The notes under the pieces are model-generated. The model searched no databases. It saw only the letters and a list, made by a program, of their open reading frames with translations, and was not told the DNA's origin. DNA of 60,569 nucleotides, counting the filler, from Sphacelaria rigidula (taxonomy: Eukaryota), in the NCBI GenBank assembly GCA_964200075.2. It is 7 parts of 7 records of this genome, joined end to end, with 100 filler letters (N's around TTAATTAATTAA, not from the genome) between each part and the next. Parts side by side here need not be neighbours in the genome. Positions count along the whole stretch, not along the records: positions 1 to 8,568 come from CAXNAA020010756.1; 6 more parts are not named here. The stretch is one strand, 5' to 3'. The translations under genes were made by a program, and so were the position numbers. Position 1 is the stretch's first letter; each line of letters opens with the position of its first letter. Below are positions 1 to 49,707 of the stretch, in pieces.

Positions 1-1122
1 CTAAGAAAATACTTGGATGCTCGAAAACGACGAGTAATACAGTTTTGAGAACAGAGTTGGGACTGTATTCACTTTAAACTAACAGAGACACGAGAAAATT
101 GCGATGGCAATATAGCGTGAAGAACATGCAGAGAAAAAGATTGCCAGCTATAGTTGATAGGGCTGTACGGAGGAAAAGTACGAAAGGGCAGGCTGGAGTA
201 AGGTGGGATAGAGAAGTCGAGAAAGTGTGGAAGGAGATAGGAGGAAGCCAATACGAAATACTGTCCATACGTGAAGGCGCGGGGTACAAGAGATATGATC
301 GAAATGAGGAAAAAACGATCGCTCAGACAAAATTCGACTTAACGGTCTACGAGGGAAAGGGACTGCTGAACCCCTCTCGCGATAAAAAATAAAGGCAAGC
401 ACCGCAAAAGGAAGGTGGGGCAGTAAAAACAAATATTAAAGAATAAACTCTTGTGCTTACCTTCCTCCTGTGTGACCGCGGCTGGTGCGCCCACATATCC
501 CGAAAGGTGTAGAACGGCGTCCAGAATAGATGGGACGACAACACACCACACACGCAGACGCAAAGTAGACGCGGAACAACACCTGGAGATATACGGGGGG
601 TTGGAAGAGGGGATAGGGGTGAAAACATATTTGCATGGTCCAATGGACGCTGCGGAAAATCTGGAACTGCGATCTCGGGTGAGGGACCTGAGCCTGCCAG
701 AAAGAAGTAGATATACCAGTCGTCGAAAGGACGAGGGTGTTGATCGACAGAATTGCCCCTGTGGCAAAGCAATAGAGAGCAGAAGTCATATAGTGGCAGA
801 ATGTGAACTAAACAAGGAGGAACTGGACGTGCTAGAGGGGGAAATGCGGGACGTGAACAAAGGTGGCATGCAATCGTTTGATGCATTAGACAGTAGGGAG
901 AACACGATAGCTACACTAGGAGATAGATGGTGGCCACAGACGGCGGAACAGGACGGAGATAATGTATGTAAGAGGTTTTTGTGTAATGTATGGGAGAAAC
1001 GTAATGAGCTACGGATTGTTGGAGGTGTCTCTATTAGGAGTAGGAACGGTGCTCCGTCTCGAAAGGGATGCGTGGTCAATGATCACACGTCTAAGGTAAG
1101 CAACAAATGAGTACGCCCCCCC
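1..1122 (+). mobile_element. 3' part of a non-LTR retrotransposon (LINE family A, RTEX/CR1-like ORF2 C-terminus with CCHC zinc finger), degenerate, interrupted by a SINE at about 327-553
   Basis: Post-RT peptide KKILGCSKTTSNTVLRTELGLY..RKLRWQY (1-300, with a stop), then HLEIYGGL..NCPCGKAIESRSHIVAEC (Cys-Cys-His-Cys zinc-finger-like motif). The ORF stops at 1110 and the element ends ATGAGTACG+C-run. A closely similar copy lies at 17337-17902. Confidence 0.8.
327..553 (+). mobile_element. 5'-truncated copy of the tRNA-derived SINE, inserted into LINE family A
   Basis: Matches the body of the copies at 6122, 15985 and 23477 (GAGGGAAAGGGACTGCTGAACCCCTCT...CCTTCCTCCTGTGTGACC...GAATAGATGGGA) and has a CA-rich tail. 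Confidence 0.85.
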
Positions 1123-1129
1123 CACCCTC

Positions 1130-1400
1130 CACAGGCTTTCCTGTACAGTTGATCGATGTCTACGTCGTAGAAGGTGTTCAGTCCAATATTTTCTCCCTTC
1201 ATCGCATGCAGAAGCGACATGATATCGTTCTAAATTCGACTGGGGTACATTTATTAATGGCAGATTACGTTTCGACCGCACAACGCGTTTTTCATCACAG
1301 TTTGCCACACGTATTCCCACTACTACCAGGGAGCCTCGTCTCTCAACGAGAGAAACTGGTTTTCCTTAACCCAGTAGCGGAGTTGATCCGTGTGCTACGG
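1130..1400 (+). mobile_element. Ty1/copia pol fragment (protease-adjacent region), degenerate
   Basis: VQLIDVYVVEGVQSNIFSLH..GVHL resembles the copia 'L.DV..VP....NL.S' motif. Confidence 0.45.
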
Positions 1401-2740: not shown

Positions 2741-5306
2741 AGTGCATCACCGCAGTTATCGGCAACAACTCCGAGTCCAACGCAACTGATGTCACCACCA
2801 ATGCCGTCACCACCGACACAATCGGCAACATATTTTCACGCGTGACGTCGTCGGCGCGGGTGGAACGGAGCAGAGGAGGGATGACGATGGGTTGGAGTGG
2901 AGCAAGTATGAGGTGCCGATTCGATGAAGAAGGGGGGCGCGTGACCATGGAAGGATGCAGAGGCCGGAGATAGACTTTGGACGATAGAATACTCCGAATA
3001 TGGCCATGTCAAGTGCCTATTCGTTGACAACTTCAGCTTCATGGTATATTCATGCGTTGCACAATTTTGATTCTCGATAAGGCTTTGGATCGTACTATTT
3101 CGAGTGAAAGCGCATTAATGGGACCACCGTCCGACTGCAGTGATTTGACCGGTGGGCATCAGATTTGCAACAGTAATTGGCATGTTTCACAAGGCTTTTG
3201 GGGGATTTGTCGGGAAGTATGCGTAAAAACAGCTGGCGCGCATCGAAACCGCGTGAAAATTCAGACTCATAATTTTGATCTTAGGTGAGTATGGCGGTAC
3301 GACACTTTGTACGATATCGTACATTTTACCGTTGTTCGATTTGAGTTCGATTGTTGTGATTCAATCTCGGTTTCTGGTATCACCGAGATGCTGACATACT
3401 TAGAATTATTTCTTTCGATCTGATTTTGATTTTCGAAATAAAATTCAAGTGTTTCCAACCAGGTGCTGTGGTCACGAAAGAGGTCAGGGGGTCGATCGAT
3501 TTGACAGCATCAACCTTTTGATGGATCATGGCATATGACGAATTCTTTTTGCTTGATTTAGTTTATTGATCTCGGGTTTTGGGACATACTTTTGTGACAT
3601 ATTATGGAAAAAAAAGCATGGCCCGAGATGTGATATTTTATGCCCCCGAAAATTGCAATGTGATATAGGATTAGGGAGGCATGTAATTCAGGAGTTAATT
3701 TTTCTTGATGATCTTGACTTTTTCTTGCCGAGTCTTTCGAGCCTCACGGCATTTGTGTTGTGAGAATTGTTTGATTTTATGGGATTGATCCAAGATTATT
3801 CCTGCGTGATGATATGACCAGGGCCAAGCCTCGACAAGGGGGGCTACTAGAATATTGCCGAACTGAACCCTTCTGCTCATGTACTTGGATTGATTCGGGT
3901 GCATTACGGGGTAGACTGATGGTGTATCAGTGGTACGGGATAGTGTATCATGACCGGATGTACGACATATAAGGCGATGCAGTCAGCACGCAGCGTGCAT
4001 CGCTTGTCACTCTCCGTGTCCTTCATATTTGGGGTGTTTGCATATCTACATCCTGGTGATGTGAACGCAGCTCGGGTGGAGCTTGCATGGTTGATGCTGG
4101 GTGAGTAAAGGGTGTAAAAGGTTAATACAAAAAGAGTGACTGCACATTCCTCTCTGTCCAGAGCACCTAATTCGAGGGGCCTTCATTAACGATCACGACA
4201 GTGAAGAACTGACTGCAGCACGCAAAACAAAGGAGATGGGAGAGACCACCACGTACAGGAGCACAGACAGTGCGGTACAAAAGTCAGTACTGCCCAATCG
4301 TAGTGCAGTACAGTACACACAGCACGGACGGGGTGGCTTGGGCCACTAGCGTCAATACCGTACCTTCTGGTATGGCGCGACCAGAAAGAGCAAAGGTGTC
4401 TTCCACAAAATGGCTGCGTGCAATAAAGTACAACTGATCGCACAACCGTGCAGAACAGTACACAACAAAGACCAGCACACAGGGTGGTTTTCACCGTTTG
4501 ACAGGATCTCTCTCGGATTCGGTGAGATAAGATCTTGAGAGGGTTGAGGGCACGAAGACACATCGTTCTCGACACAGCATGAGTCGATTGGCCCCAAATT
4601 TTGTACAGAGACGGCAAAGCATATGATGAAGGATATGGTGCCACTGTCCCGCCACTGACATCAAAGTCACCCTGAGTCACTGCCTTCGCAGCAGGGCTAT
4701 GCGGGTTCGGGCTGAAGCCTAAAAAATGGGGATGTCGTAGGAGAACATCGACTCCGACACTCACCGAATGAATCAAGAAGATTCCACTTGACCCGATTTA
4801 TTCCACATGAAGTAGCAACGGCTCTCTCACTCCTTGCGGTCTGCAGTCGGGTGGTGCTACGGCGATGGCTGGTGGAGTGCGGAGCATCTGCAAGCGAGAC
4901 TGCTCATATACCGCACCCTTTGTCATGTTCTATTTTCCCAATTCAGCACTGACTGCTTAGTCGGCGCGTGTGTCATAGCCTATTTCTTTCTTCTTTTCTT
5001 TCCATATAGGATTTTGTAGGGGCATTCGGAACATAACCAAGTACACATATTATTATCTTTTTTCATAAATTTTGACTGTCACATATACCGGGGACCTCGA
5101 GTTTGACATGCAGCCATAGCTCTATAGAAATAGTACACGATTTTCCCCGATTCATCACATTCTTCGATCGCCGGTCGCGAAGCCGATAAACTACTATATA
5201 AGACTATAAAGTGAATAGTTATAAAACACACAAATCTTGGCACGGTTTAGCGGATAGATAACCCCTCCCGGAGAGACACAGGCCCACAACACACCATCTG
5301 GGATCC

Positions 5307-6121: not shown

Positions 6122-6671
6122 GCCGGTCGCCCCGGTGACTCAGTTGGTAACTTCGAAACCCTCTGACGGTTGGGTCGTGGGTTCAATTCTCGGAGCGATC
6201 TGGGATTTTTTCACACCATGTCTTGACAGTGGAGAGCGACTATGTTGTGGGTACACAAAATTCGACGACGAGGGAAAGGGACTGCTGAACCCCTCTCACG
6301 ATAAAAAAGAAAGGCAAGCAGCGCAAAAGGAAGGTGGGGTACTAGATGTATCTCATACTCGGCTCCCGGTATCCTGGTTTGTTTTGTTCTATGTTTTCAA
6401 GTGAAAATGATGGCGATTTATCAGATGATGAGGGGCCCCTTGACCGCCAGGTTACGTCCTCCCTTGAATCGCGATCACTTTCACTTGAAAAAATACTACA
6501 CAACTCAGAGCCAGCGAATAAACCAAGATACCGGGAGCCGAGTTTGAGATACCTCTACCAAAAAAAAAGAAAAACTCCCGTGTTGACCTTGCTCCTGTGT
6601 GACCCCAGCTGTTGCGCCCACATATACCGAAAGGTGTAGACCGGTGCCAAGAATAGATGGGATGAAGACAC

Positions 6672-6701
<30 letters not shown>
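6122..6701 (+). mobile_element. Full-length tRNA-derived SINE with (CA)n tail, in intron 1; carries a nested MITE
   Basis: A-box-like GTGACTCAGTTGG, B-box-like GGTTCAATTC, body shared with four other copies, (CA)n tail at about 6669-6701. Confidence 0.8.
6343..6557. mobile_element. MITE (about 215 bp) with 38-bp terminal inverted repeats, nested in the SINE
   Basis: TAGATGTATCTCATACTCGGCTCCCGGTATCCTGGTTT versus the reverse complement of the right end, TAGAGGTATCTCAAACTCGGCTCCCGGTATCTTGGTTT (3 mismatches). The segment is absent from the other SINE copies. The terminal TA may be the TSD. Confidence 0.85.
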
Positions 6702-8568: not shown

Positions 8569-8668
8569 NNNNNNNNNNNNNNNNNNNNNNNNNNNNNNNN
8601 NNNNNNNNNNNNTTAATTAATTAANNNNNNNNNNNNNNNNNNNNNNNNNNNNNNNNNNNNNNNNNNNN
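8569..8668. other. Artificial contig linker (44N-TTAATTAATTAA-44N); also at 17237-17336, 25905-26004, 34573-34672, 43240-43339 and 51905-52004
   Basis: Identical 100-bp spacer with stops in all six frames; the flanking contigs are sorted by length. Confidence 0.98.
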
Positions 8669-15984: not shown

Positions 15985-16340
15985 ACCAGTCGCCCCGGTG
16001 GCTCCATTGGTAACCACGAAACCTTCCGACGGTTGGGTCGTGGATTCGAATCTCGGGGCTGTCAAGAGATCTGAGATTCTTTTTCTCACACCACGCCCAT
16101 CAGTTGAGAGCGATTGTGTTGTGGGTACACAAAATTCGGCTTCATGGTCGACGAGGGACAGCGACTGCTGAATCCCCTCTTGCGATAAAAAATAAGAGAA
16201 GCGCCGCAGGTGGGAGAGACTACATCAAAATAAAAAGTAAAAACTTCTGTGTTGACCTTCCTCCCGTGTGACCCCGGCTGATGCGTCCACATATATCGAA
16301 AGTTGGAGACTGGCGTCAAGAATAGATGGGATAACACTCC
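15985..16340 (+). mobile_element. tRNA-derived SINE copy (antisense to the host gene, intronic)
   Basis: A box GTGGCTCCATTGG, B box GATTCGAATC, shared body and 3' end GAATAGATGGGAT. Confidence 0.8.
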
Positions 16341-16521
16341 CATATTCTGAACAATCTTCCTTCCTCAGGACCACTCTCGCCGGTCTCAGGGAGTCAGCGT
16401 CTTTTCTCGGTAACTTTGCTTCACATCGGAGTACCAGGACCAAACGTCTTTCATTGGAAAATGATACATAAACCGGGCGTCACCGAATCACATGACATTT
16501 TAAACGGAACATCACACACAC

Positions 16522-17336: not shown

Positions 17337-17902
17337 TATACGGGTGGTTTAGAGAGGGGGGTAGGGATGAAAGCATATTTGCATGGCCCAATGGACGCTG
17401 CGAAAAATCTGAAACTGCGATTTCGGGTGGGGGACTTAGACCTGCCAGAAAGAAGGAAAATATATAAAAGTCGTCGAAAGGAGGAGGAAGTAGATCGACA
17501 AAACTGTCTTTGTGTCATAGCAATAGAGAGCAAAAGTCATATAGTGGCTGAATGTGAGCTACACAAGGAGGAACGGGACGTGCTAGAGGGGCAAATGCGA
17601 GACGTGAACAAAGGTGGCATGATATCATTTGATGCACTAGACAGTAGGGAGACAACGATGGCTATACTAGGGGATATATGGTGGCCAGAGACGGTGAAAC
17701 AGGACGGGGAGAAGATATGTAAGAGGTTTTAGTGTAATGTTTGTAAGAAACGTACTGAGCTACGGATGGAACGTAATGAGCGCCAGAATGTTGAAGGTGT
17801 CTCTATTAGGAGTAGGAACGGTGCTCCGTCTTGAAAGGGATGTGTGATCAATTGCCAAACGACTAAGGCAAGCAACACATGAGTACGCCCCCCCTTCCCC
17901 CC
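17337..17902 (+). mobile_element. LINE family A 3' fragment ending ATGAGTACG+C-run
   Basis: MKAYLHGPMDAAKNLKLRFRVGDLDLPERR..ESKSHIVAEC, highly similar to 590-1122. Confidence 0.85.
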
Positions 17903-19860: not shown

Positions 19861-19936
19861 GTCGTTTGACCATTGACCACACATCCCTCCCAAGACGGAG
19901 CACCGTTCCTACTCCTAGTAGAGACACCTCCAACAT
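19861..19936 (-). mobile_element. LINE family A subterminal fragment
   Basis: Reverse complement of GTTGGAGGTGTCTCTA.TAGGAGTAGGAACGGTGCTCCGTCT...GGTCAATGGTCAAACGAC. Confidence 0.8.
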
Positions 19937-20431
19937 GTAGGTACCACCAGGCGTGTACCGGGGATACCCATAGAGGTGGCGCAATGTTGTAGTTAGCCGT
20001 CGTGTTCACCGGAAAGGGCGCCACGTTGTGGACACGCTCCTTCAATTCGCACAGTAAACGGCCGAGCTGCGATCGCGACAGCAAAGGCATTTCAAGGTAG
20101 TCTCATCATGCTGGATCCTTTTGCGTAGGTATGTCCTGTTTATCTACAGGCGAATGCATTCCGCACTCCGCCCCGTAGTTTGAGTTGGGAAGGTCTTGGC
20201 GATGTACCCTCAAACCAGGGGTAGGTTATTTACCCCACGCTTCGCGCCAATGTCGGAACGTTTGGACTCGAGGCTTCAGCCGCACACGAGGACACGCTCG
20301 CAAATCATATAGGTGCAGACTCGGCTCACCAGCGTGGCACGTTGAAGGTACCGGCGTTGATATCTGTCCCAACCCCGTTCATATTTGAATGTATTTTGCG
20401 CCCGTGCACCTTTGGTTTGCAAATTCGTGCT

Positions 20432-23476: not shown

Positions 23477-23828
23477 GCCGGTCCCCCCGGTGGCTCGGTT
23501 GATAATCTCGACACAAGTGGGCCATGGGTTCAAATCTCGGAGCGATCGGGGATTTTTTTCTCACACAATGCCCAACAGTGGAGAGCGACCATGTTGTGTG
23601 GGTACACGAAGGTCGACGTGATGGTTGACGAGAGGAAGAGACTGCTGAACCCCCCTCTTGATGAAAAATAAAAGGCAAGCACCGCAGAAGGAAGGTGAAA
23701 CACTGAATCAAACAAAAAACAAGAAACTTCTGTGTTGACCTTCCTCCTCTGTGACCCCGGCTGGTTTGCCCACATATATTGAACAGTGTAGACCGGCGTC
23801 CAAAATAGATGGAACGACGATACACACT
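23477..23828 (+). mobile_element. tRNA-derived SINE copy
   Basis: A box GTGGCTCGGTTG, B box GGTTCAAATC, shared body, short CA tail. Confidence 0.8.
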
Positions 23829-25095
23829 GTACCGCAGCCCCCGCAGTATGTTTACTTGCTCTGTGTTTTGTGAGTTTTGTTTGAGGCTGTGCCTTTCAAT
23901 GTAATATGCGAGCATGTGAAGAGCGTGCGCGAGTCCACAAACGAGTTGGTGCAGAGAAGGCGCATTCCTGTGATTCGCGCCCACTTTGGAAGAAGTTGGC
24001 CGTGTCTTGTAATGGATTTCAGGCCGTTGGCTTTAACGTACATGATGTTTTCACCCTTTTCTCTTAAATGTAGCCCGTTTTGATTATGGACACATTGTCA
24101 TGGTGAGCTGTATGGCCATTCAACACTGCTCTGTGAGTGGTTTTGTTCACCAACCGCAGTATCATCCCCTTGTGCGGTGTTGTCTATGGCTTTCGCAGCC
24201 GTCTGGTGGTCCGCAGCAAAGCTGCAGGTGTAGATGGTTCAGAGTACGTTGTTGTTTTTTTCATCTCCGTTTGTTTATATTCATTAGCGTCCCATCGTCT
24301 CGAAAAAATAATTAGAGTTCCTGACGGCGTTACTGTACTGACACATGAATACACATAATAAATAAAGTTGGAGTTCCTGACGGCGTTACTGATACGTACG
24401 TACCCGCGTAGGCAGTATAGCGTCCGCTCTGACGGATTAATGCTACATACATACTACAACGCTACCGTTGTACAAGACTGCAAGAACAATCGCTGTTAGG
24501 TCGGTAATGCTCGACTAGCACTTCTCTCTTTCCCTGCGAACTCATGAGTGCCCAGGTGGGGATCAAGATGACGTACCGTATCGGCCTGCCCGTCGTCTTG
24601 GGCCATATTTTTCCCTACGGCAATCTCTCGCCGCCAATGCTAATTCGTTATACCTCATCGCTTTCCCCTTCCATCACCATTCCAAGGGTGGGTGTTTATC
24701 TCGCCGTCTGTACATGCCCGTAGCTCGCAAAGCGGTAAGTTCTTGACTCGACACGATTTTTTGTTTTCGATTCGCTACACCCTTGGGTTGATCGGCAAAA
24801 TCGTGGAAATCGGCAAATCAGCACTGATTTTACCCGATGTGCACTGCCGCTGTAGGTTACCGATCATCGACAAATTTGTCATCCGATATAAAATGGCACT
24901 GTGAAAAGAATATTCACTCCCTCCTTGAGCCCATCGGCGACTTTTGTTTTCTTCCCGTTCGTGCTCATCGATGAATCTGTGATGTTTTTTTTCCCTCTCC
25001 TCCAGAAAACAAACAAAGTATCAATGCCACATATCAGAGCAATTATGTATCCCATCCCATCTCAAACATTTACATACTATTTGGGTGAGAAAATA

Positions 25096-25741: not shown

Positions 25742-25830
25742 ATGAGTGCGTTGTCATCCCTCCTATTCTGGACGCCAATGTACATCTTATACGTGGGCGA
25801 CGTGGGCGCGTCAACCGGAGTCACACAGGG
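25742..25830 (-). mobile_element. 3' fragment of the SINE (variant)
   Basis: Reverse complement reads CCTGTGTGACTCCGGTTGACGCGCCCAC...GGCGTCCAGAATAGGAGGGATGACAAC. Confidence 0.7.
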
Positions 25831-26059
25831 GGGGGGGGGGGGGGGCACCATTTTTTGCTTGCCCTTGGGGGGTGCCCATTGACCAGCCCTCCCTTTTGAG
25901 GAGGNNNNNNNNNNNNNNNNNNNNNNNNNNNNNNNNNNNNNNNNNNNNTTAATTAATTAANNNNNNNNNNNNNNNNNNNNNNNNNNNNNNNNNNNNNNNN
26001 NNNNCCTGGTCATCATCCAGGATCCTACATGCTACATCTACTACGCCTTGGTGTATTTT

Positions 26060-32046: not shown

Positions 32047-33506
32047 GAAACATGGTGACGATGGCAACGTAAATGGTGTGACTATCACCGTACAAGAAAT
32101 AATCCTTGAAGATGCGGCGATGAAATCTGTGCCAGTTCATCGACAGCACTTCAGCCCGCTATAGGCACTAGACCCTCCCACAAACATTGCAGGTATTAAT
32201 CGCGTTACTGTGTCTAGTCCGCACAGTCCAACTAGCTCGGCCGCGCATGGAGAGAGTACTATTCGGCGGAACGGGGGAAATCCGTTCCAAAGGGGTAAGA
32301 ATTGTGATTCCGCTGAAACATCGGAATCCAACACGGGGACTGATCATCCACGTGAAGGTATTGTTAAGGTTGGGAAGAAATCACAGTGCTGTTTAAGTCA
32401 GAAGGTCAGCCAGTCTGTAGGCATTTTATTGCAGGCAGGTGTAAATAGGGCCTCAGCGTTGACATCTTGCGCGACACCTCAGTCTGGCCGTCGGAATAGT
32501 GCATCGGGTACGGGTCGTTCCCCTAGTTGCGCACAAATTATAAGCGGTATTTGAAGTAAAAGTAAAACATCGAGTGCACAAGCATGCAGCCGAGTTGTAT
32601 CATCTGAACCTTCGGTCGCCACTAGGGTTATGGATGGACCCGATACGATTGTACCGTCGCAGAATATAGAGGACCCAGTAGGATCCGTAAGCATCCAGGG
32701 TGAGGCAGGAGAACCGCATGATCGAGAAACTTCTCAGAGTAATTCTCGATACCCATCCGGACCGAGGACCACATGCAAGAATCTTCCCGCCGAAACTCCC
32801 ACCGCACAAGGCAAAACTGCCCACTGCGGGAGGAGCAGTAGTAGTAGCTGTAACCTGGTTGGAAGAAATGACATTGCTCCCGCCGAAAATAAACCTTCCA
32901 CTATGCACGGCAAATCTGCCCGTGTCAGTCGGGAAAATAGTAATGCTCAGGAAGGGCAAAACAGATTTCTCCCGCCGAAATTTCCTCTGTGCACGATGAA
33001 AATAAATGCACCAGTTCGACTTCTAGTAGCATCGAGGTGAGCATATAGTATGTGAAATATCTCGAAATAGAGACTCCGATGGGCATAGCGTATCAACTCT
33101 GAACAGTCGGGGCAACAGTAGCGTAGGTCAGGAAGGACCAAACGAGGTTGGTCCTACTCTAGATCTGGCAATAACCGTGCACGGAGACGGATCAGCCGAC
33201 GACGGTAATGATGTGCAGGACTGTATGACTATTGATTTTCCCGATAGTACCGCTGTAGCTTCCCAAATTACTTCACAGCCTGTAGACAGTGACGAGTGCC
33301 CGTGCCACGCTGTGCGTAGTGCAGTTGAAGAGAAAGGTAACGATCCAAGTGAGATAACAGCCGAAAGTATTTACGTGCTGGACCCGAAAACAGGTAGCCG
33401 TTTGCCTAACAAACCGGTTTCCGTCGGCGTTCCGGCGACAATCTCATCAAGTTGCGCGGGAAAGGAAAGGATCTTCCTTGGAAACAATTCATAAAGTAGG
33501 GTGTGT

Positions 33507-33555
33507 GGGTGTACTCATGATCATGCATGCCATAGTCATCAGACCATTGACCTCG
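33507..33555 (-). mobile_element. Very short 3' end of LINE family B
   Basis: GTACTCATGATCATGCATGCCATAGTCAT.AGACCATTGACCTC, flanked on both sides by GTGTGTGGG. Confidence 0.75.
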
Positions 33556-34672
33556 TAGTGTGTGTGTGGGGGGGGGGGAAGTGAGTGTGAATCGCAAGGA
33601 AATTTTGCCTTGGGTGCAAATGTTTTCGTGTCCAAAGGCGTCTAGAACATTGGAGGTCAAGACTCTAGTGAACACAGGAAGTCCAGCGACATTCATTCGG
33701 TACAAGGTGTGGAAAACAATGGCTGAGGCCGGGGCGGCTACCATAAAAGGTGCCCGTGAAGTAGACCTTGTGTCCTGGAGGGACTTCGATGGCTTCCAGT
33801 TGTGTACTTTTCACAGGTGCTGTTGGATATCAGACAGTGGCTTAGAAGACTCAACCCACGAATGTCGGTTTAAAACGGACGAGCATGTGTAGCAAGTTAC
33901 GCCCCTGTTGTACCATATGGAACAATGGACGATGATACCCTAGTAGGACGTGATGGCCTAGGTTTATTGTCGGGCAGAACGTATCGTGATGTTAACCGAC
34001 GAGAGACAATCATGACATTGTGAGGGAACGACATTGATTTTGTTGATCGTGCGTTCGCGGATCACGTTCGCAATGCCGTTGGCTTCATTGAACCCAAGTC
34101 GTCAGCGGCCCAAGTGATAGTAATGTACAACGGATATCATAGTATGGTACGACCTGATACTTTGCCATGGGTTCCTGTCAAACAATTCAACATGGACGGA
34201 ACGCCCACCACCGGTGGCTCTTACTATGCGACCCTGGATCCCGATTGGTCCCCGCATGAAGTAATCATAGATGCTGTAGAATTCATCATCCTTCTCAGTT
34301 ATACTGTCTCGGAGGGGGAGATGTTATCTCCTAATACGACTTTGAGATTTGCCGGGGCACCGTTAATACCTTGCTCTTGGGCAGATGTTGCGATTTCCAC
34401 TATAAGTGAGGAAAGATCTTAGAAGGCACTTATGGTCGAACCGGAGAGATGCTGACGTCTGTTTCATTTGGGCTAGTAACAGCCGATTCTCGAAAATGGG
34501 GTTGAAAAAAAGAATGAGGTTCAACTCAAAAGCCGTGCTTTGCCTGACCTGAATTCAAGACAAATGACTTCCNNNNNNNNNNNNNNNNNNNNNNNNNNNN
34601 NNNNNNNNNNNNNNNNTTAATTAATTAANNNNNNNNNNNNNNNNNNNNNNNNNNNNNNNNNNNNNNNNNNNN

Positions 34673-34735
34673 AGGGATGCGTGGTCAATGGTCAAACGAC
34701 TAAGGCAAGCAACAAATGAGTACGCCCCCCCCCCC
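34673..34735 (+). mobile_element. LINE family A 3' terminus with C-run tail
   Basis: GGGATGCGTGGTCAATGGTCAAACGACTAAGGCAAGCAACAAATGAGTACG followed by 11 C. Confidence 0.85.
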
Positions 34736-40099: not shown

Positions 40100-42210
40100 G
40101 TGCCTGAGCGAACGGCTACACTAGTGTCCAATCGATTGGGCAAGGATGGCTGGGAACGATGGCATGACTGCTTCTCCTGTAGAGAGCGGTACAGACGTCA
40201 ACGCTTACCTATAATGTCAAGCCGGTTGACACGTTTGTTCAGTATGCTGGCTGAGCGTGTTGGGGATGTGCAACCAAGGTAGACTGCATGACAGACACGA
40301 GTACATGATCTTGAAGATGCGCACGAGTCCGGTGGCCCACGGAGCGATGTCATCGAGAGCGAAGGATCTTCTGGGAGGAGAGCTTAAGTGATCCCGACAC
40401 TCAGCAAAGCGAAGGATGACAAGTCGAGAGAGGGCTGGTCGACAGCGAATCTGTAGAGAAAACCCCAACCATGGGTGCTTCACCCAGCGGTTCCCGCCAT
40501 GTGCCGTTCTCCCTACCCTACCCATCTCCAAAGCAGGGAGTGGGCCGCACCACGCCGCGAAATTCCGCTGACAGCAGGAGGGGTAAAATGACTTTACCGT
40601 TCCCTTCTGGGGCCGGAGAAGGCAGGGTGATTATACATAATCCCGTTCAAGATCTCTTTGACGCCCGGGGTTCGGCGCCATCCGCACCCGCCGTTTACAC
40701 CGCCGTCATTGGCGGTATCATCCACACCGCCATCTACAACACCAACGTCACCAACAGAACGATACACCCGCGCCGACGGTACCGCACCCACACCCTCACC
40801 GCCAACAACACCGTTGTCTCTGCCATCGACAACCATCGATACCCCCGATGGCTCTGAGCAAAACGGGGGGGGGGCAGTTCTGAATCCCCAAGGACAGAGC
40901 TACGCCGTCTCACACTAAACGAGAAGTTGTCTCTACCTCCTCAAGCGGCTTGTCGCACGCGGAGTGCGACAAGAGCGGCGGCACGAGCCGATAGGGGAGG
41001 GCTGAAAAACGCAGTAAAGTCCCCAATAGCAGGGCTGGTGGACGAGGTGGGAAAAATGCCTACTGGCAAATGCGGAAGGGGGAATGGTACTGGCTGAAAT
41101 GGTGGGAGATAAATACGTCACGACAGACCTGATCACTTCCCCAGCCAGACCGGAGGCGGGAGGAAATGCCCACATAATCATCGAGGAAGATCTGACAGAT
41201 CACGAGTATCCTTGCTGACTGCAGAGAATGACATAGAGAAGGAACACAGCTTTGCTTTGCGCTCCCACATCGGCCTAGATGTGCGTGATGTTAAGAGTCC
41301 CCCCGTGAACGTGGATGATGGAGCAAAGTCGGAGTACCATGAAGTAAGAGTCAAGCAGGCAGGGAGGGGGTGGTGGAGGATGCAGGGGTGGTGCAAGGTC
41401 AAGCTGATTCCTCCGTGTTTCAGAAGGAGAAAGGGCGGCGAGTTAACGTCATTCTAGTCGTTTATGTAGACGATATTTTAATCAGTGGTGAGAGAGAGAA
41501 GGTGGAGATTGTGAAGAGAACCTCAACAAAAAATTCCCCACCAACAGCCTTGGTGCAGTCCAGTGGCACGTGGGGTGTGCTGTAGAGAGCGATTGGGACA
41601 AAGATACGCTGTCCATGAATCACTCAACGTTTATAGACACCCTGTTGAATCGCTTCGAGGTAACGGATTTTTCATATATCCTTGCCTCAACTTCTGCGGA
41701 CTTGGGGCCGGTGACGGAAGAGCACTCGGCGGCAAATCGCCTCTACGATAGTGTGAGAGAAGGGTTAATAGGTGTAACTAGGCCCGGCATAGCCAATGCT
41801 GTTCAAGCCCTGGCCCCTCCGTCTCATGATCCATGTGAGAGGCACGGGGAAGGAGCTCTAAAAGTCGCAGCGTACCTGACAAAAAACCACGGAACACGGT
41901 TTGACATTCAGTTGAGGAGATAATGTGCTTTCGGTATATTGTGATGCTGACTATACCCGGAAGAAACGGATAGACGATCGGTTTCCAGAGCAGCGGTAAT
42001 TTACGGGGGGGTAGCAGTACCAGGCACCCGCGATAATAACACTATGTGACTTCGTCAACCACTGGGGCAGAGTATGTCGCCATGGCCGAATGGGCCAAGG
42101 GTGCATGTTCGTGAGGGCGGTTCTGTCTTTTCTGCGAACAAGAATTGTGGTGGGGTGCGCGGCCGAGTACGTCATCATTCTTACGAGGACAACGACGGGG
42201 CTGAGGCCCA
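40100..42210 (+). mobile_element. Degenerate Ty1/copia pol (RT and RNase H remnants)
   Basis: VILVVYVDDILISG (about 41445-41490), TRPGIANAV, VYCDADY (41935), STTGAEYVAMAE (42055) and YEDNDGA (42182), in copia order with frameshifts. Confidence 0.85.
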
Positions 42211-43094
42211 TCATCAGCCCCATTATTACCGACACTGTATTTCGGGAGGCCTCCAAACTTTGAGACATGTCGAACTCTGTGTTCGGGCTTCTCCAACAAT
42301 GAAGCGGCTTGGTTTTTTCTCCGAACGTTCATTTCTGGACAAGTCTGAACATTTAGGACTGCCACTCAGCACTTTGGAAGAGCTGCCCTGTGAGTACGCC
42401 GTGGCGCTCGCACGCTTTCGAGATTCATCAACATCCGAAATTTTCAAGGATTTCCGAAAAATGGACTCGAAAGTAACGGACCTTATCGACTCTGTTTTCC
42501 CGGAGGTCTCGGACTTTTCGGACTTTCCGGACTTTCCGGACTCTGCATTCAGGCTTATTCGAAAACGAAGTGACCAAAGGTTTTCTCCGATGTCTCGGTT
42601 TTGAAGAAGTCCAAAAAATTCGGCCTGGAGCCCAGCACTTCGGAGACCTGTCCTGTATGTACACCGTGGCGCTTTCGTGCGTCCGAGAGTCATCAGGTAC
42701 CTCGCCACTCCCGAAAACGTTGGAGATCTCTGAAAAAAACAGTGCCGATAATAATGGGCTTAAGCGCCTGGCTGAAACCCCTCTCAACTCGGGCGGTAGC
42801 AAGCACACATAGGCGTAAGGTGGCATTCCATTCCGGATTTCGCACAGTCGGAAGCCATCAAGGAGACACGTAGCGAGAGCCCCCCCCCCCCCCAACCAGC
42901 CCCAAACTGTCACGAAAAAAATGGCCATATAGCTGCGACAGCTTATTTCAGATCGCCTCAAGGGCCTCATATGGGCGAGTGTGGCGAAAACGATCCCAAG
43001 GGTGGGAGTTTCCAGCTGCTTGGTGTGCTCGGCTTTCATCAGTTTGATTTTCATGCAGAGTTTTCTTTCTCGAATCAGCCATTGTTCTAAGGGG

Positions 43095-43143
43095 GGGAGG
43101 GGGGTGCACTCATGATCATGCATACCATCGTCATAAAACCATT
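43095..43143 (-). mobile_element. Very short 3' end of LINE family B between G-tracts
   Basis: GGGGTGCACTCATGATCATGCATACCATCGTCATAAAACCATT with G-runs on both sides. Confidence 0.7.
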
Positions 43144-43849
43144 TAGGGGGGGGGGGGGGGGGGGGGGTTGCTGGCGACATCACAAAGTGTGATTGTTTTG
43201 TTGGGTGGGGGTAGGGCGACGAGATACCGCAGAAAAGAANNNNNNNNNNNNNNNNNNNNNNNNNNNNNNNNNNNNNNNNNNNNTTAATTAATTAANNNNN
43301 NNNNNNNNNNNNNNNNNNNNNNNNNNNNNNNNNNNNNNNCTCCAGCCCCCCCCCCCCTCCTCCCCTCCCGTTCTCGGAATGGGTTCGTAGCCTTAAAGAA
43401 TCAACCAGGCCATCTCTCCCGCGGTACCTGCCTCCCTTACACTTCACTGTTCTCGCGAATTTTTTCGCTCAAGTCAAAATGTCCAATGTGGACAGGGTAC
43501 AACCGTACAACCCGTACGCGTGCAGTAGGATAGCGAAAGATTACTAGAAATACATGGCGACCCCAAGCCCCCAACCCGTGCAAACAGTTTGTTGGAGTTG
43601 AATTTTTCACTCTCCACGTTGGGAGGGGAATATGCCCGTGGTGATTGTGCGGGCGGTAGATTGACCATGACCTGAGATTGGCGCGCAATTGTACACAGAA
43701 ATTATGCATGAGGGTATTCCTCTCAAATTTATACCTATAGGTGAAAGTTCGCTCAACGGTACTCGTACCGTACACCATGTATCGCAGTTGCCAATCTTGT
43801 ACGGTTTTCGAACGAGAACGGACAGCCCTGTGTAGTATCGAGCAGTAAC

Positions 43850-45430
43850 TGATGGATCAGTAATCCTGCGGCAGCCTGTTGACTCTCACCGAGTCTTGTA
43901 GGATACCGTTTCATCTGCAGCGGCGAGGACTACCCCCCGGACTACGTGCAAACGAGGACAGAAGGGCTGGTGTGCGAGAGGGAGGAGGTGAAATGCAAGA
44001 TTCTCAAGGCGTGGAGGAAGAGGAAGGCGACCCGGCGACAGCTTCGCACCGCTCCAGCGGATACCGCTATGCGAAGGGAACTCAAGACAGCAGCGATTGA
44101 GCTTAACCAATTGAGAGACAGGGTCATGTGTTGGTTCTTCGAGAAGTACGCGCCGCAGCTCAACGAGCTGGAAAGGATATATGACCGGTTTTTACCAGCA
44201 CATGAAGGAGCTAGACGTGGAAGAATAACGGCCCTTTGCTTGGCCGAACATTGAGGGCGAAGACGGCAAGCTCCTGCGAGACACGTGCTCACCCTCGCAC
44301 GGTGGGTCGGGTGGTTCCACAAATCCCACAAAACCAAGTCGCCAACCCTCAACCCTCGGATGACCGAGCAGGTCAAGCAGTGGCCCAGGTGCGTGCCACT
44401 CGACGAGATACCGGCCAGGTTCGAGGTCGAGGAAGCAATACAGTGAATGACCAACAGGAAAGCGACAGGATCGGGCGAGCTCCCGGCGGAGCTCGTCAGA
44501 CTCTTCTCCGATGGAAACCAAGACCTCCTACATCGATTCCACGATATCATCTTCACCACGTGGCAGAAAAGAGTGTCGCCAGAGCAGTACAAGGACGACA
44601 CAAATATGGTGATGTTCAAGAAGGGCGACACGACGGAGTGTGGCAACTACCAGGGCATCTCTCTTGTGCCACACGCTGGCAAAGTGGTACTCAAGCGCGT
44701 CACCACACGCTTGAGCAACTACTACGAGCGCGAGGGCACCCTCCCGGAGGAGCAAAGCGACTTCCGCCTAGTCCGCTCGACCTACGACACGATGTTTGCG
44801 ATCCATGTGCTTCATCTATCTCACCAAGCCAATTAGACTCCGTCGACCGAGGACTGCAGCAGACCGTGCTCAAGCGATTCGGCGTGCCCCCCCAAGATGC
44901 TAGCGATCATCCGGCAAGTCCACGACAGCCTGAGGGTGTGTGCGTGCGGATGGACCATGAGACGTGCTCCGACTGGTTCGACGTGGGCCAGCGGAATCGA
45001 CACGGGTGCAACCTGGCACCGCTGCTGGTCAATCTTTTCTTCGCTGCAATACTCATGGTGTCAGTAGATGACTTCGTCGGAGACGACGGGGTGACGGCTG
45101 ACACGGCAAAAATCAAGGGAGAACCAAGGGAAAAGGGGCAGTTCACGATGGCGGAGGCCGCGCACACGCTGTCGGGCATGCCATACGCCGACTTTTTGCG
45201 GGCACAGTTTCGTGATCGCCGGGGAGCCTCGAGAGAATGATATCGACCACAAAGATTATGTGCTTGCTGCCGAAACGGGTGGAGGAGTGCGCGTTCAGGC
45301 TCTACACCGGCGGCCAGGTATATGAACAAACAAGCAAATTCGTATACCTCGGGGAGGCCATCTTGGCAAGATGGGCAAGGAAATTGCAAATCGCCTGGAT
45401 CGAGCATGGAGATGCGATTAGCTTCCACAT
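43850..45430 (+). mobile_element. Degenerate RTE-clade LINE reverse transcriptase
   Basis: [64 protein letters not shown] and FVYLG motifs, with frameshifts. Confidence 0.9.
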
Positions 45431-47680: not shown

Positions 47681-48750
47681 GGGTAAAACTGATCATCTTG
47701 CATGCCGTAGTCACATAAGACCGTTGACCTTGCGTCTCTACAAATCCGGGACGGAGCACGCAGTCACCAAGCACGAAGCGCCGTGAATTTGGTCGGGGAG
47801 TCGCATGAAAGGTGAGCTGCATCTTGCTAAGATTATTTGGCCCGAAGCGTAATGACTATTTTGCATACGGATGGCAGCTTCCAATGGGTTGCTTCCTTTT
47901 TTTTTTGCATCATCGCCACTCCCAGAGACAATCACGGGTTTCACATCGCCTCATGGGTGTCTCACCATTGAAACACTACGTAGTACGATCATCCCCTTTG
48001 TGCAGAGTTCGAGTTCTCCACCCCGCACAGTATGATTTGGCTCGACCACCATCATGGTTACTGCAAAAAGACGCAAGCGCGAAAAAAGTGGTAACCTGGT
48101 CGTCTAGCTTATGCGGTGAGTGGCGTGTTTTACAGCGTCGTTGCCACCTGACGCCAGCCCTCAGGAGGGTGGACGGGGGTGTACTCATGATGGTGGACGG
48201 GGGGGGATTGTACTCGTGACCTTGCATGCCGTAGTCATAAGACCGTTGAACGCGCACCCCTACAAAGCCGGGACGAAGCATGCCGGGTCTTCGCCCGACC
48301 AGGCTCGCAGTCTCCAAGCGCAAAGCGCCGTGATGTGTTCGGCAAGTCGCACAAAGGGTGAGCCGCATCCTGCTAAGATTTTTCGGCCCGAAGCGTGCTG
48401 ATAATCTTGCATATGGATGACAGCCTCGAATGAGTTGTTTCACTTTCTGATATCGCCACTCCTAGAGCCAGCCACGGGTTACACACTGCCTCATTGGTGT
48501 CCCACCATTTAAGCACTGCGCAGACTAATGTGCGAAAATAAATAAACAATTAAAGTTCGATTTTTCCCTCTGCGCGGAGTTGAGGTTCGCCACCCCGCAC
48601 AACATGATCTAGCGCGACCACCATCATGGTTACCGCAAAAAAACGCAATCGAGAAACAAAGCGATGACTTGGTTGCCTAGTTCACGTTGTGAGCGGCGTA
48701 TTTTGCACATTCGTTGCCAACCGACGCCGACCTTTGTAAGGAAACAGTGG
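47681..48750 (-). mobile_element. Three head-to-tail LINE family B insertions (about 47681-48163, 48180-48191, 48209-48748) in an intron
   Basis: Two mutually similar copies of about 500 bp plus a 12-nt stub, separated by recurring GTGGACGG(GGG) target-like sequence. Confidence 0.75.
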
Positions 48751-49707
48751 ACGGTTGGGGGGGGGGGGGGGGGGGGGATTAAAAAACTAATTTTTTTTTA
48801 AAAGGGGTCGGGAGGGGGGTGAAAGTGGGGGGGGGGTGAAGAAAAAAATCCAGAAACTCAATTCATGTCACAAGGGCTCAGAGAGGCTGTTGAATGTGAG
48901 TGGGTGATGAAACGAAAATAGTCGGTTGTTGTTTCAGCGACAAACTCCATGGTTGCGGTGGTAGCAGATGTGTTTTTGTTTCAATAAGGCAAAATGCGGG
49001 GATGTGGGAAGGATGAGTTGTGCGTAGAGAGGCGTACCCTTCCGCACGAGAAGAGCAGAGAGGAGGTATAATACCTCCCTTCTTTGTCGCAAAACAAAAT
49101 GAAAAATAGGCGAGAATTTACGTGGATGCATGAACGCGCGCGGTAAAAACAAAAATGATCAAGATCTGTTGAAATTGCTAGGGGGAAGAGGTATGTGTCG
49201 AGGGGGGACATGTGCGACAAGGCGTCTCCAATATCTGTCGGCCGTACCCTGGAAAACACAGGAATCGAAAAGCAAGAAGCAAACACACACACACAATAAA
49301 TTCACCCCGCAAGCAACCACCCAAGCAAGAGAACGAACACACTGCACGAGCGGAGAAGTCACGACTTGTAAGTTTTAACCTGCTGTAAGTAGATATTGGT
49401 CATCATCCTCACAACTACCAACGACGAAATATACACCAAGGAGATAGCAAGTAAATACCAACGACGAAGTGTACCCAATCGTGGCATGCCCTCTGTATTG
49501 TAGTCGAACGAAGAATGTCAAGTGTTATTTTTTATTCCGAGTGTATTGTTTTCCTGTAGGCCAAGAATCTTACATTTACCTTCAACACGCCTGCTGTTGT
49601 TGCCAATAGAGGATACACCCCAGACAGCGGTAAACGTGTGCTCGGAAAGTACGATGATGAAGTGAGCAAAGAGTACAACTAATGTAACGCGCAACAAGGA
49701 AACTCAC

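Follow-up and report, generated by a model that had tools for sequence, protein, structure and literature searches.

Families A and B, two repeat families of Sphacelaria rigidula, are best explained jointly, A as a brown-algal LINE of the RTE-X type and B as its passenger, both of which would insert into C tracts by priming on G runs. The probability of this reading is put at roughly 0.8. It builds on the domain content of A, the fixed 3' end, target sites in C tracts with target site duplications (TSDs), the lack of poly(A), occasional added C's and a covarying hairpin, all of which were observed.

The terminus and its flanks

The window (the whole stretch of 60,569 nucleotides that was analysed, filler included) consists of seven separate contigs of about 8.6 kb and of equal size class, divided by 100-nt N spacers whose core holds stops in all frames (8569-8668 and five similar gaps). 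It is thus a sample of a fragmented 244-Mb genome and not a single locus. As the first-pass annotation had described, 3' ends of family A read ATGAGTAC-G followed by a C-run (1107-1115, 17879-17887, 34716-34724 and, as reverse complement, 51731-51739), and those of family B read ATGAGTAC-A followed by C's (33511, 48181 and 51798, reverse complement), with the variant terminus ATGAGTGCA at 43105. The exception reported for family B was recovered at 58248-58256, yet a C-run adjoins the 5' side of this copy, and the G/C runs listed for 5' sides are present at 33568, 43146, 48757, 51842, 52054 and 56998. Family A also has almost no 3' UTR, the stop codon at 1108-1110 being followed by 4-5 nt.

Of the 32 C/G runs of at least 8 letters in the window, twelve are no more than 30 nt away from an A or B end (chance expectation: mean 0.86, maximum 5 in 2,000 random-placement trials), and in 12 of 12 the C's are on the sense strand of the element; the remaining 20 of 32 have no recognisable A or B end beside them. 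Genome-wide, the 17-mer of the family A terminus has 4,624 exact matches and the 21-mer of the family B end 2,215, while the reversed-pattern controls gave 0 in both cases. At 3,694 of the 4,624 A sites (80%) N-CCC comes next after the terminus. Past the terminus, the first base is G in A (0.85; 85 ends) and A in B (0.91; 44 ends), the following six positions are C in 75-92%, and the C frequency drops toward background about 20 bases out.

Shared downstream sequence or poly(A) beyond the C-run had been named as observations that would make the run internal to a longer element. These 85 A and 44 B ends have no common sequence past it, and a poly(A) tail is absent. A10 occurs within 15 nt of the terminus at 16 of the 4,624 sites, always behind C's, and at 6 of 11 such sites inspected the C-then-A run is present in the target as well. 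A recurrent sequence behind some C-runs was considered as a shared 3' extension and rejected, being the end of another repeat that served as target.

Family A is a decayed LINE

To judge from the reading frames, family A is a decayed LINE with a single ORF encoding APE, RT and CCHC domains. Its long copies hold pieces of one ORF with an endonuclease, a reverse transcriptase and a C-terminal CCHC knuckle, and ORFs of this type comprise about 1,330-1,430 residues. In the best full-length homologues, P0001 and P0002, whose C-terminal peptide is the same as in the window copy, Exo_endo_phos (PF03372) and RVT_1 (PF00078) were above the Pfam cut-off, and the GIY-YIG endonuclease family that would mark Penelope-like elements of the Chlamys type was not detected. 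An N-terminal APE endonuclease and a LINE-type RT thus occur in one ORF in P0001/P0002 and in the genome copies, which span P0001 1-1360 piecewise at about 42-78% (L091, L093, L196; tblastn). The RT also matches human L1 ORF2p (E 7e-21). Further hallmarks of LINEs found in family A are the fixed 3' end, variable 5' truncation, TSDs of variable length and the lack of LTRs. Together with the TSDs at C/G tracts, the domains support the proposed non-LTR nature and target-primed insertion; the first-pass view of both families as LINEs holds for A with its APE-RT ORF and fails for the noncoding family B.

Intact metagenome relatives (L213, L215) have the same terminus, followed by C7-C9. The Ectocarpus-named protein P0003 shares the C-terminus, and other Ectocarpus-named proteins fall into the P0002 cluster. 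A quick RT tree of 103 rows placed five genome copies, L213-L215, P0001, P0002 and Ectocarpus P0004 in one clade (SH-aLRT 100), which points to a brown-algal host. Family A may be called RTE-X-type, a label taken over from the Ectocarpus annotation and not from this tree. None of the 150 RT matches scored in the genome had an intact ORF, the longest open frame having 517 residues. Copies are 5-10% diverged in the terminal 60 nt and are, by this measure, old. The 5' UTR of family A contains an array of a ~63-nt monomer in variable copy number (L091:350-1020, L210:400-940, L212:850-1220). Promoter monomers of mouse L1 resemble such arrays. Viral contigs gave 0 matches to the element.

The family A copy that ends at about 1108 (+ strand) starts beyond the contig start. 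Its upstream part (3..291, +) corresponds to ORF residues ~1065-1160 of P0001 (tblastn) and is 82% identical to 4105-4390 of the intact relative L215 (blastn). An unrelated repeat that ends in (CA)n (327..546, +; repeat families D3/D12), with blastn matches at many loci and ACACAC loose ends behind 546, splits the copy. The ORF C-terminus follows at 555..1110 (+) with 184 codons and TGA at 1108-1110; it is 66% identical to P0001 1176-1360, has 85% nucleotide identity to L215, and includes the CCHC knuckle C-x-C-x8-H-x4-C (754-804, +). The last element base, G, and then C8-A-CCC-T-CC occupy 1115..1130 (+). These letters are duplicated target and/or added tail, two components that are inseparable here because the 5' junction of the copy lies off the contig. 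Contigs of sequencing runs X5 and X7 (records 24, 32) have the same letters; they cover 1098-1500 and 1100-1500, respectively, with zero differences, and the assembly may derive from one of these runs. In both X5 and X7, the loose ends behind 1123-1127 show C-runs and then unlike sequence (agreement 0.38-0.45).

Further family A copies in the window are a 3' part of 550 nt with C7-TT-C6 (17337..17901, +; repeat families D6, D17), a fragment without the last ~23 nt (19861..19944, -), a decayed terminus with a C18 run (25828..25900, -), a terminus at a contig start with C11 (34673..34735, +), a tiny copy with an interrupted C-rich flank (51720..51768, -), and a copy whose 5' end lies at the ~ -65 hotspot discussed below, with C-runs before it and its 3' end off the contig (52005..52078, -). 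The abundant (CA)n-ended repeat family, present at 327-546, 6122-6689, 15992-16358 and 23483-23841, may be the (CA)n-ended CRE LINE catalogued for Ectocarpus. Decayed fragments of a different RTE-like LINE, with 29% to P0001 in the RT, occur at 43883-45240, 55786-56430 and 57110-58000. A Pfam search of eight window frames yielded only a weak RVT_1 match, in an unrelated fragment (44447-44833), and the frame at 41492-41923 resembles, by eye, a Copia-type LTR RT/RNase H that gave no Pfam match.

Family B is a noncoding partner

Family B, by its sequence organisation, is not a LINE but a nonautonomous, noncoding partner of about 550-600 nt. The longest stop-free frames of three long copies have 59-107 codons, and the match to family A is confined to the last ~65 nt, one homologous 3' end that B appears to have borrowed. 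An autonomous LINE was rejected for these reasons, as no RT is encoded. The shared 3' sequence with its conserved stem-loop is the feature by which stringent LINE/partner pairs are recognised. The head of family B repeats its own subterminal ~45 nt (92% over 36 nt; 15 long copies aligned); this self-repeat was seen in L089:1028-1575, L058, L049 and L151. Truncated B copies cluster at the start of the inner copy (94-99 nt), and full-length B is often placed directly behind a family A tail. The B head has no homology to the 5' end of family A. ARAGORN found 0 tRNA heads in L089 and L058, and Rfam gave only sub-threshold chance hits on the head in four loci; classification as a SINE with a pol III head of tRNA, 5S or 7SL origin was rejected on these grounds, unless the head is highly decayed.

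In the window, family B is represented by a 45-nt copy with a 12-bp TSD, whose target opens in a C11 tract (33499..33578, -), a short copy with C-runs on both sides (43091..43167, -), a copy with a decayed end (47688..48156, -), a near full-length copy (48209-48731) with a duplicated terminus at 48181 and C21 on its 5' side (48174..48777, -), a 45-nt copy with C8 on one side and C20 on the other (51789..51861, -), an old copy with C12 on the 5' side (56530..57009, -), and a 105-nt copy without a 3' C-run, in which the duplicated T-rich target stands directly behind CCCC (58140..58270, +).

Target and tail

From 202 A and B ends in fetched loci and the window (ten loci selected for inversions were left out), 43 were dropped because of contig ends, N's or a length above 1,400 nt, leaving 159 junctions. 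Within 32 nt upstream of the 5' junction, C5 or longer was found at 90 of the 159 and G5 or longer at 4, compared with 3.9% in random windows. A strict search identified TSDs of 8-20 bp at 39 junctions (shuffled pairs: mean 2.05, maximum 5 in 40) and none at the remaining 120; it superseded a loose duplication search (58 of 159 versus 16.9 shuffled). Read by eye, the TSD opens with C in 35 of the 39 cases, and the other four lie at most three bases from a C-run. Empty paralogous sites are available at 20 ends of an unrelated inverted-repeat element: five carry an A or B insertion in the inner C tract, and the tract is present in 14 of the 15 unoccupied ends. Since the TSDs open in the tract and the empty sites contain it, the tract predates insertion and accounts for the larger part of what looks like a tail. 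The proposed insertion into pre-existing C/G tracts is borne out. The inverted-repeat element itself is ~250-360 nt long with 17-nt terminal inverted repeats and 1,485 exact end matches, carries C tracts of the same strand just inside both ends, and is a frequent landing site of A and B (C376:798-1161 and C439:5241-5496 of G000; loci L305-L324).

Compared with the target, the 3' side holds fewer C's in 21 of the 39 TSD cases, equally many in 6 and more in 12, and the excess is 3 or more in 11 of these 12. Four loci have 12-14 C's on the 3' side versus 3-6 in the target (L078, L147, L149, L046), and the letters that do not derive from the target in the 39 cases are C 128, T 12, G 6 and A 4. The extra C's in 12 of 39 clear cases indicate that a short element-borne C tail exists too, while the age of the copies and later drift in homopolymer length make C counts noisy in both directions. 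The earlier idea of a LINE ending in poly(C) is therefore right in that poly(A) is absent and C's were added in these cases, but most of the C-run is duplicated target.

An even simpler view, in which the C-run is target DNA only, the RNA lacks a C tail and longer 3' runs result from later slippage, would account for the 27 of 39 cases with no more C's than the target and for the 18 of 39 with at most one non-target base, some with none (L008; window 58256). It is nevertheless considered unlikely, because the 12 cases of C gain are left over and slippage from three bases is improbable where CCC targets are followed by 12-13 C's on the 3' side alone (L078, L147). The same two targets, single 3-C runs in ordinary sequence, leave the suggested preference for G-quadruplex-forming DNA over a short G run without support; many targets are long or interrupted G/C tracts, as such a preference would predict, yet it appears very improbable. 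Least credible of all, to the point of being negligible, is an origin of the C/G runs in sequencing or assembly errors such as poly-G calls. The assembly is of a short-read type, many contigs break at these ends, and the length given for the longest runs is not reliable to the letter. The runs are, however, strand-concordant with the element (12 of 12), duplicated together with unique neighbouring letters, and often interrupted; they recur in contigs from runs of two studies and in metagenome relatives, and (C)n is annotated in the near-gapless Ectocarpus assembly according to its published description. Concordance, TSDs and independent relatives refute artefacts as a general explanation.

The further suggestion that these elements seed tracts is supported to a modest extent only: every insertion duplicates a tract, and some also lengthen it. 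Each insertion would offer a new target, so that copies stack head to tail, and a terminus-like motif lies at most 50 nt upstream in 28 of the 159 junctions. Short TTAGGG-like letters at or near a few junctions (L008:1430-1450, L092:5045-5055, L178) may be filler of the telomere type or occur by chance. The terminus is also present in inverted copies, with 11 matches spread over 10 sites in the genome. Twin priming on C-tailed RNA was considered as their origin and rejected; at least five of the inversions also flip flanking DNA (L111, L113, L116, L119, L120) and are thus DNA fold-backs, whereas the inverted copy at L012 is ambiguous. The fold-back inversions centred on the terminus (L111-L120) would represent template switching or amplification chimeras.

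A structured 3' RNA end

The 66-nt terminal unit common to A and B (1049..1114, +) can close on itself, the first six bases pairing with the last six (1049-1054 with 1109-1114, +) around two hairpins at 1056-1069 (+) and 1080-1093 (+), the latter a conserved 5-bp hairpin that is decayed in this copy. Single copies gave weak folding z-scores (-0.75 to -1.6). The 5-bp hairpin is located within the final codons of the ORF and shows covariation among A, B and distant relatives, into which it can be followed because it encodes a conserved C-terminal peptide. Pairing is kept in 93.8% of cells and two-sided changes occur at 3 of 5 pairs in 13 sequences, which include near-identical pairs. The covariation score is 0.431 versus 0.191 in shuffled alignments (reached by 0 of 500) and at most 0.195 when the hairpin is slid, in an alignment that was anchored by hand on the motif and is therefore biased toward structure; two of the five measures are unremarkable, being reached by 36 and 51 of 500 shuffles. 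When A and B were folded together with RNAalifold, the closing stem disappeared, an effect of the loops, which differ in length and were misaligned by MAFFT.

In a metagenome LINE clade (L233, L234, L235, L240, L244, L246) the terminal hairpin recurs, the 3' UTR measures about 10-15 nt and the tail is (TC)n; in L233, L234, L235 and L240 the (TC)n end lies within about 15 nt of the stop. More distant relatives have (CA)n, (CAA)n or a repeat of longer units at the end. With related LINEs ending in such repeats, (C)n represents the one-letter case of a known tail type.

The class of ~65-nt copies

Of 75 family A copies selected through a match to the terminus pattern, 39 are 59-69 nt long. The 22-mer that starts at -65 has 2,797 copies in the genome, of which 701 keep the next five upstream bases, a loss that is in part explained by mutation and contig breaks. 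The genome-wide 5' boundary hotspot corresponds to position 1050 (+) of the window; this is also the main 5' loose end, with a C-rich consensus before it, in 167, 34 and 34 contigs of runs X1, X5 and X7, which come from two studies. The short class is 5.5% diverged from L215 and longer copies 8-9%, and a loop variant occurs in 11 of 44 short copies versus at most 1 of 34 long ones. Family B has no boundary peak at the equivalent place despite the same closing stem, its 5' ends clustering at 44-48 and 94-99 nt, a difference that a model of simple stopping at structure fails to explain. Most likely, the class marks a place where cDNA synthesis is strongly arrested, at the 5' border of a bound RNA domain; a second driver subfamily or an independent mini-element are possible alternatives. 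According to a bolder and rather doubtful version of the latter, the last ~65 nt of the ORF would fold into a closed RNA domain, be excised or copied to within about one base, and spread on their own as a minimal retroposon, C's being added at the end for priming on G runs.

A related scenario invokes the host. CCA-adding enzymes can produce poly(C) in vitro, and mascRNA is excised by RNase P/RNase Z-type cutting. If the terminus mimicked a tRNA acceptor, it could be cut by RNase Z and given a true poly(C) by the CCA-adding enzyme, a host nucleotidyltransferase, while an RNase P-like cut at the 5' base of the stem would free a 65-nt RNA that retroposes alone. The 6-bp stem, the single unpaired base (G in A, A in B) in front of the C's, and the position of the hotspot on base 1-2 of the closing stem fit such a mimic. 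Still, the scenario is quite improbable, as the added letters contain no CCA signature and no excess of A, the predicted fold of the terminal unit has the closing stem but no T-arm, and ARAGORN (0 genes in seven loci) and Rfam (0 matches for the terminal element) were negative. In addition, starts fall mostly on base 2 of the stem (16 versus 8 at base 1), family B lacks a peak at the stem base, and the (TC)n and other repeats of the relatives are not products of such an enzyme.

Proposed mechanism

In the preferred reading, G-run-primed insertion by the LINE machinery, the LINE protein would bind the structured 3' RNA end by stringent recognition, and its endonuclease would nick the G-rich strand within a G run or at its border. 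The resulting G-ended 3'-OH could then pair with C's at the RNA end and prime reverse transcription, and a second nick 8-20 bp away would give rise to the TSD. Binding, nicking, pairing and the second nick are inferred by analogy with established target-primed reverse transcription. Extra C's may stem from read-through of the RNA into the C tract at its own genomic locus and/or from slippage of the RT on few C's, and such slippage would parallel microsatellite-tailed LINEs.

Relation to known elements

The first-pass annotation named no described poly(C)-tailed LINE, but the annotation of Ectocarpus sp. 7 lists such elements (Dinatale et al., 2025, PMC12477816): RTEX-1_Ec32 with a single EN-RT ORF, '(C)n 3'' and C-rich TSD, RTEX-2_Ec32 with '(C)n termini/TSD' and C-rich TSD in the supplement table, both 5.5-5.9 kb long with thousands of copies, and two nonautonomous elements with C-rich TSD, RTEX-N2_Ec32 and RTEX-N1_Ec32, the latter about 600 bp long, tandem, with (C)n 3' and a 60-bp end common with the LINE. 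A (C)n-ended LINE in a published annotation table limits the surprise of the present finding, and the first reading was right on the target and overstated on tail and novelty. As listed there, RTEX-1/-2_Ec32 resemble family A in the single EN-RT ORF, the (C)n 3' end, the C-rich TSD and the brown-algal host, a match that is based on annotation and Ectocarpus proteins and not on consensus sequence; many Ectocarpus RTE-X copies are annotated as intact, whereas the family A copies are decayed. RTEX-N1/N2_Ec32, in turn, resemble family B in being ~600 nt long, noncoding and tandem, with a head of unknown origin and a ~60-bp LINE-type end, but the family B head repeats its own subterminal ~45 nt, whereas RTEX-N1 is noted as weakly like the 5' end of RTEX-2. 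The passages available from that study contain no treatment of priming, of the split between tail and target, of the hairpin or of a 65-nt class. Likewise, no published account of a covarying hairpin in the last codons, of the ~65-nt class or of the priming was found in the partly accessible literature searched, which left most subscription journals and Repbase uncovered.

Short-repeat tails are known from other LINEs: green-algal RTEX end in (CA)n, (CAA)n or (CCAT)n, plant RTE in (TTG)n and eel UnaL2 in (TGTAA)n, and stringent LINE/SINE pairs have a common 3' end with a conserved stem-loop and a short-repeat tail, for which template slippage was proposed, as in UnaL2 (Ohshima, 2013, PMC3747384, as far as its accessible text shows). 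Families A and B share with these pairs a partner with the same 3' end, the conserved stem-loop and the short-repeat tail; they differ in the one-base repeat unit and in a stem-loop that lies in the last ORF codons and not in a 3' UTR. Craig et al. (2021, PMC8557442) describe insertion targeted to (C)n and (CA)n repeats for the Chlamys group of Penelope-like elements, but this group has a GIY-YIG endonuclease and a PLE-type RT in contrast to the APE and LINE-type RT of family A. With human L1, whose priming model is drawn here from passages of a recent review (2026, PMC13708176), family A has in common the APE-RT-CCHC layout and a TSD that opens with the tail-matching base. It differs in using C/G and not A/T, in the short or absent added tail, in the sequence-specific 3' end, and in that no ORF1 was seen.

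Implications

With its priming on G runs, such a LINE would mirror L1 and allow a clean test of whether the endonuclease or the primer-template pairing determines target choice, for which intact relatives exist (L213, L215, P0001, P0002). The small 3' recognition element of about 65 nt overlaps coding sequence, which would be useful for RNA-templated gene insertion. If the ~65-nt copies did retropose independently, few retroposing RNAs known would be as small as this mini-retroposon, which would mirror, in C/G, the poly(A)/T system of L1. In brown-algal assemblies, some of the long G/C runs and contig breaks are due to A and B elements.
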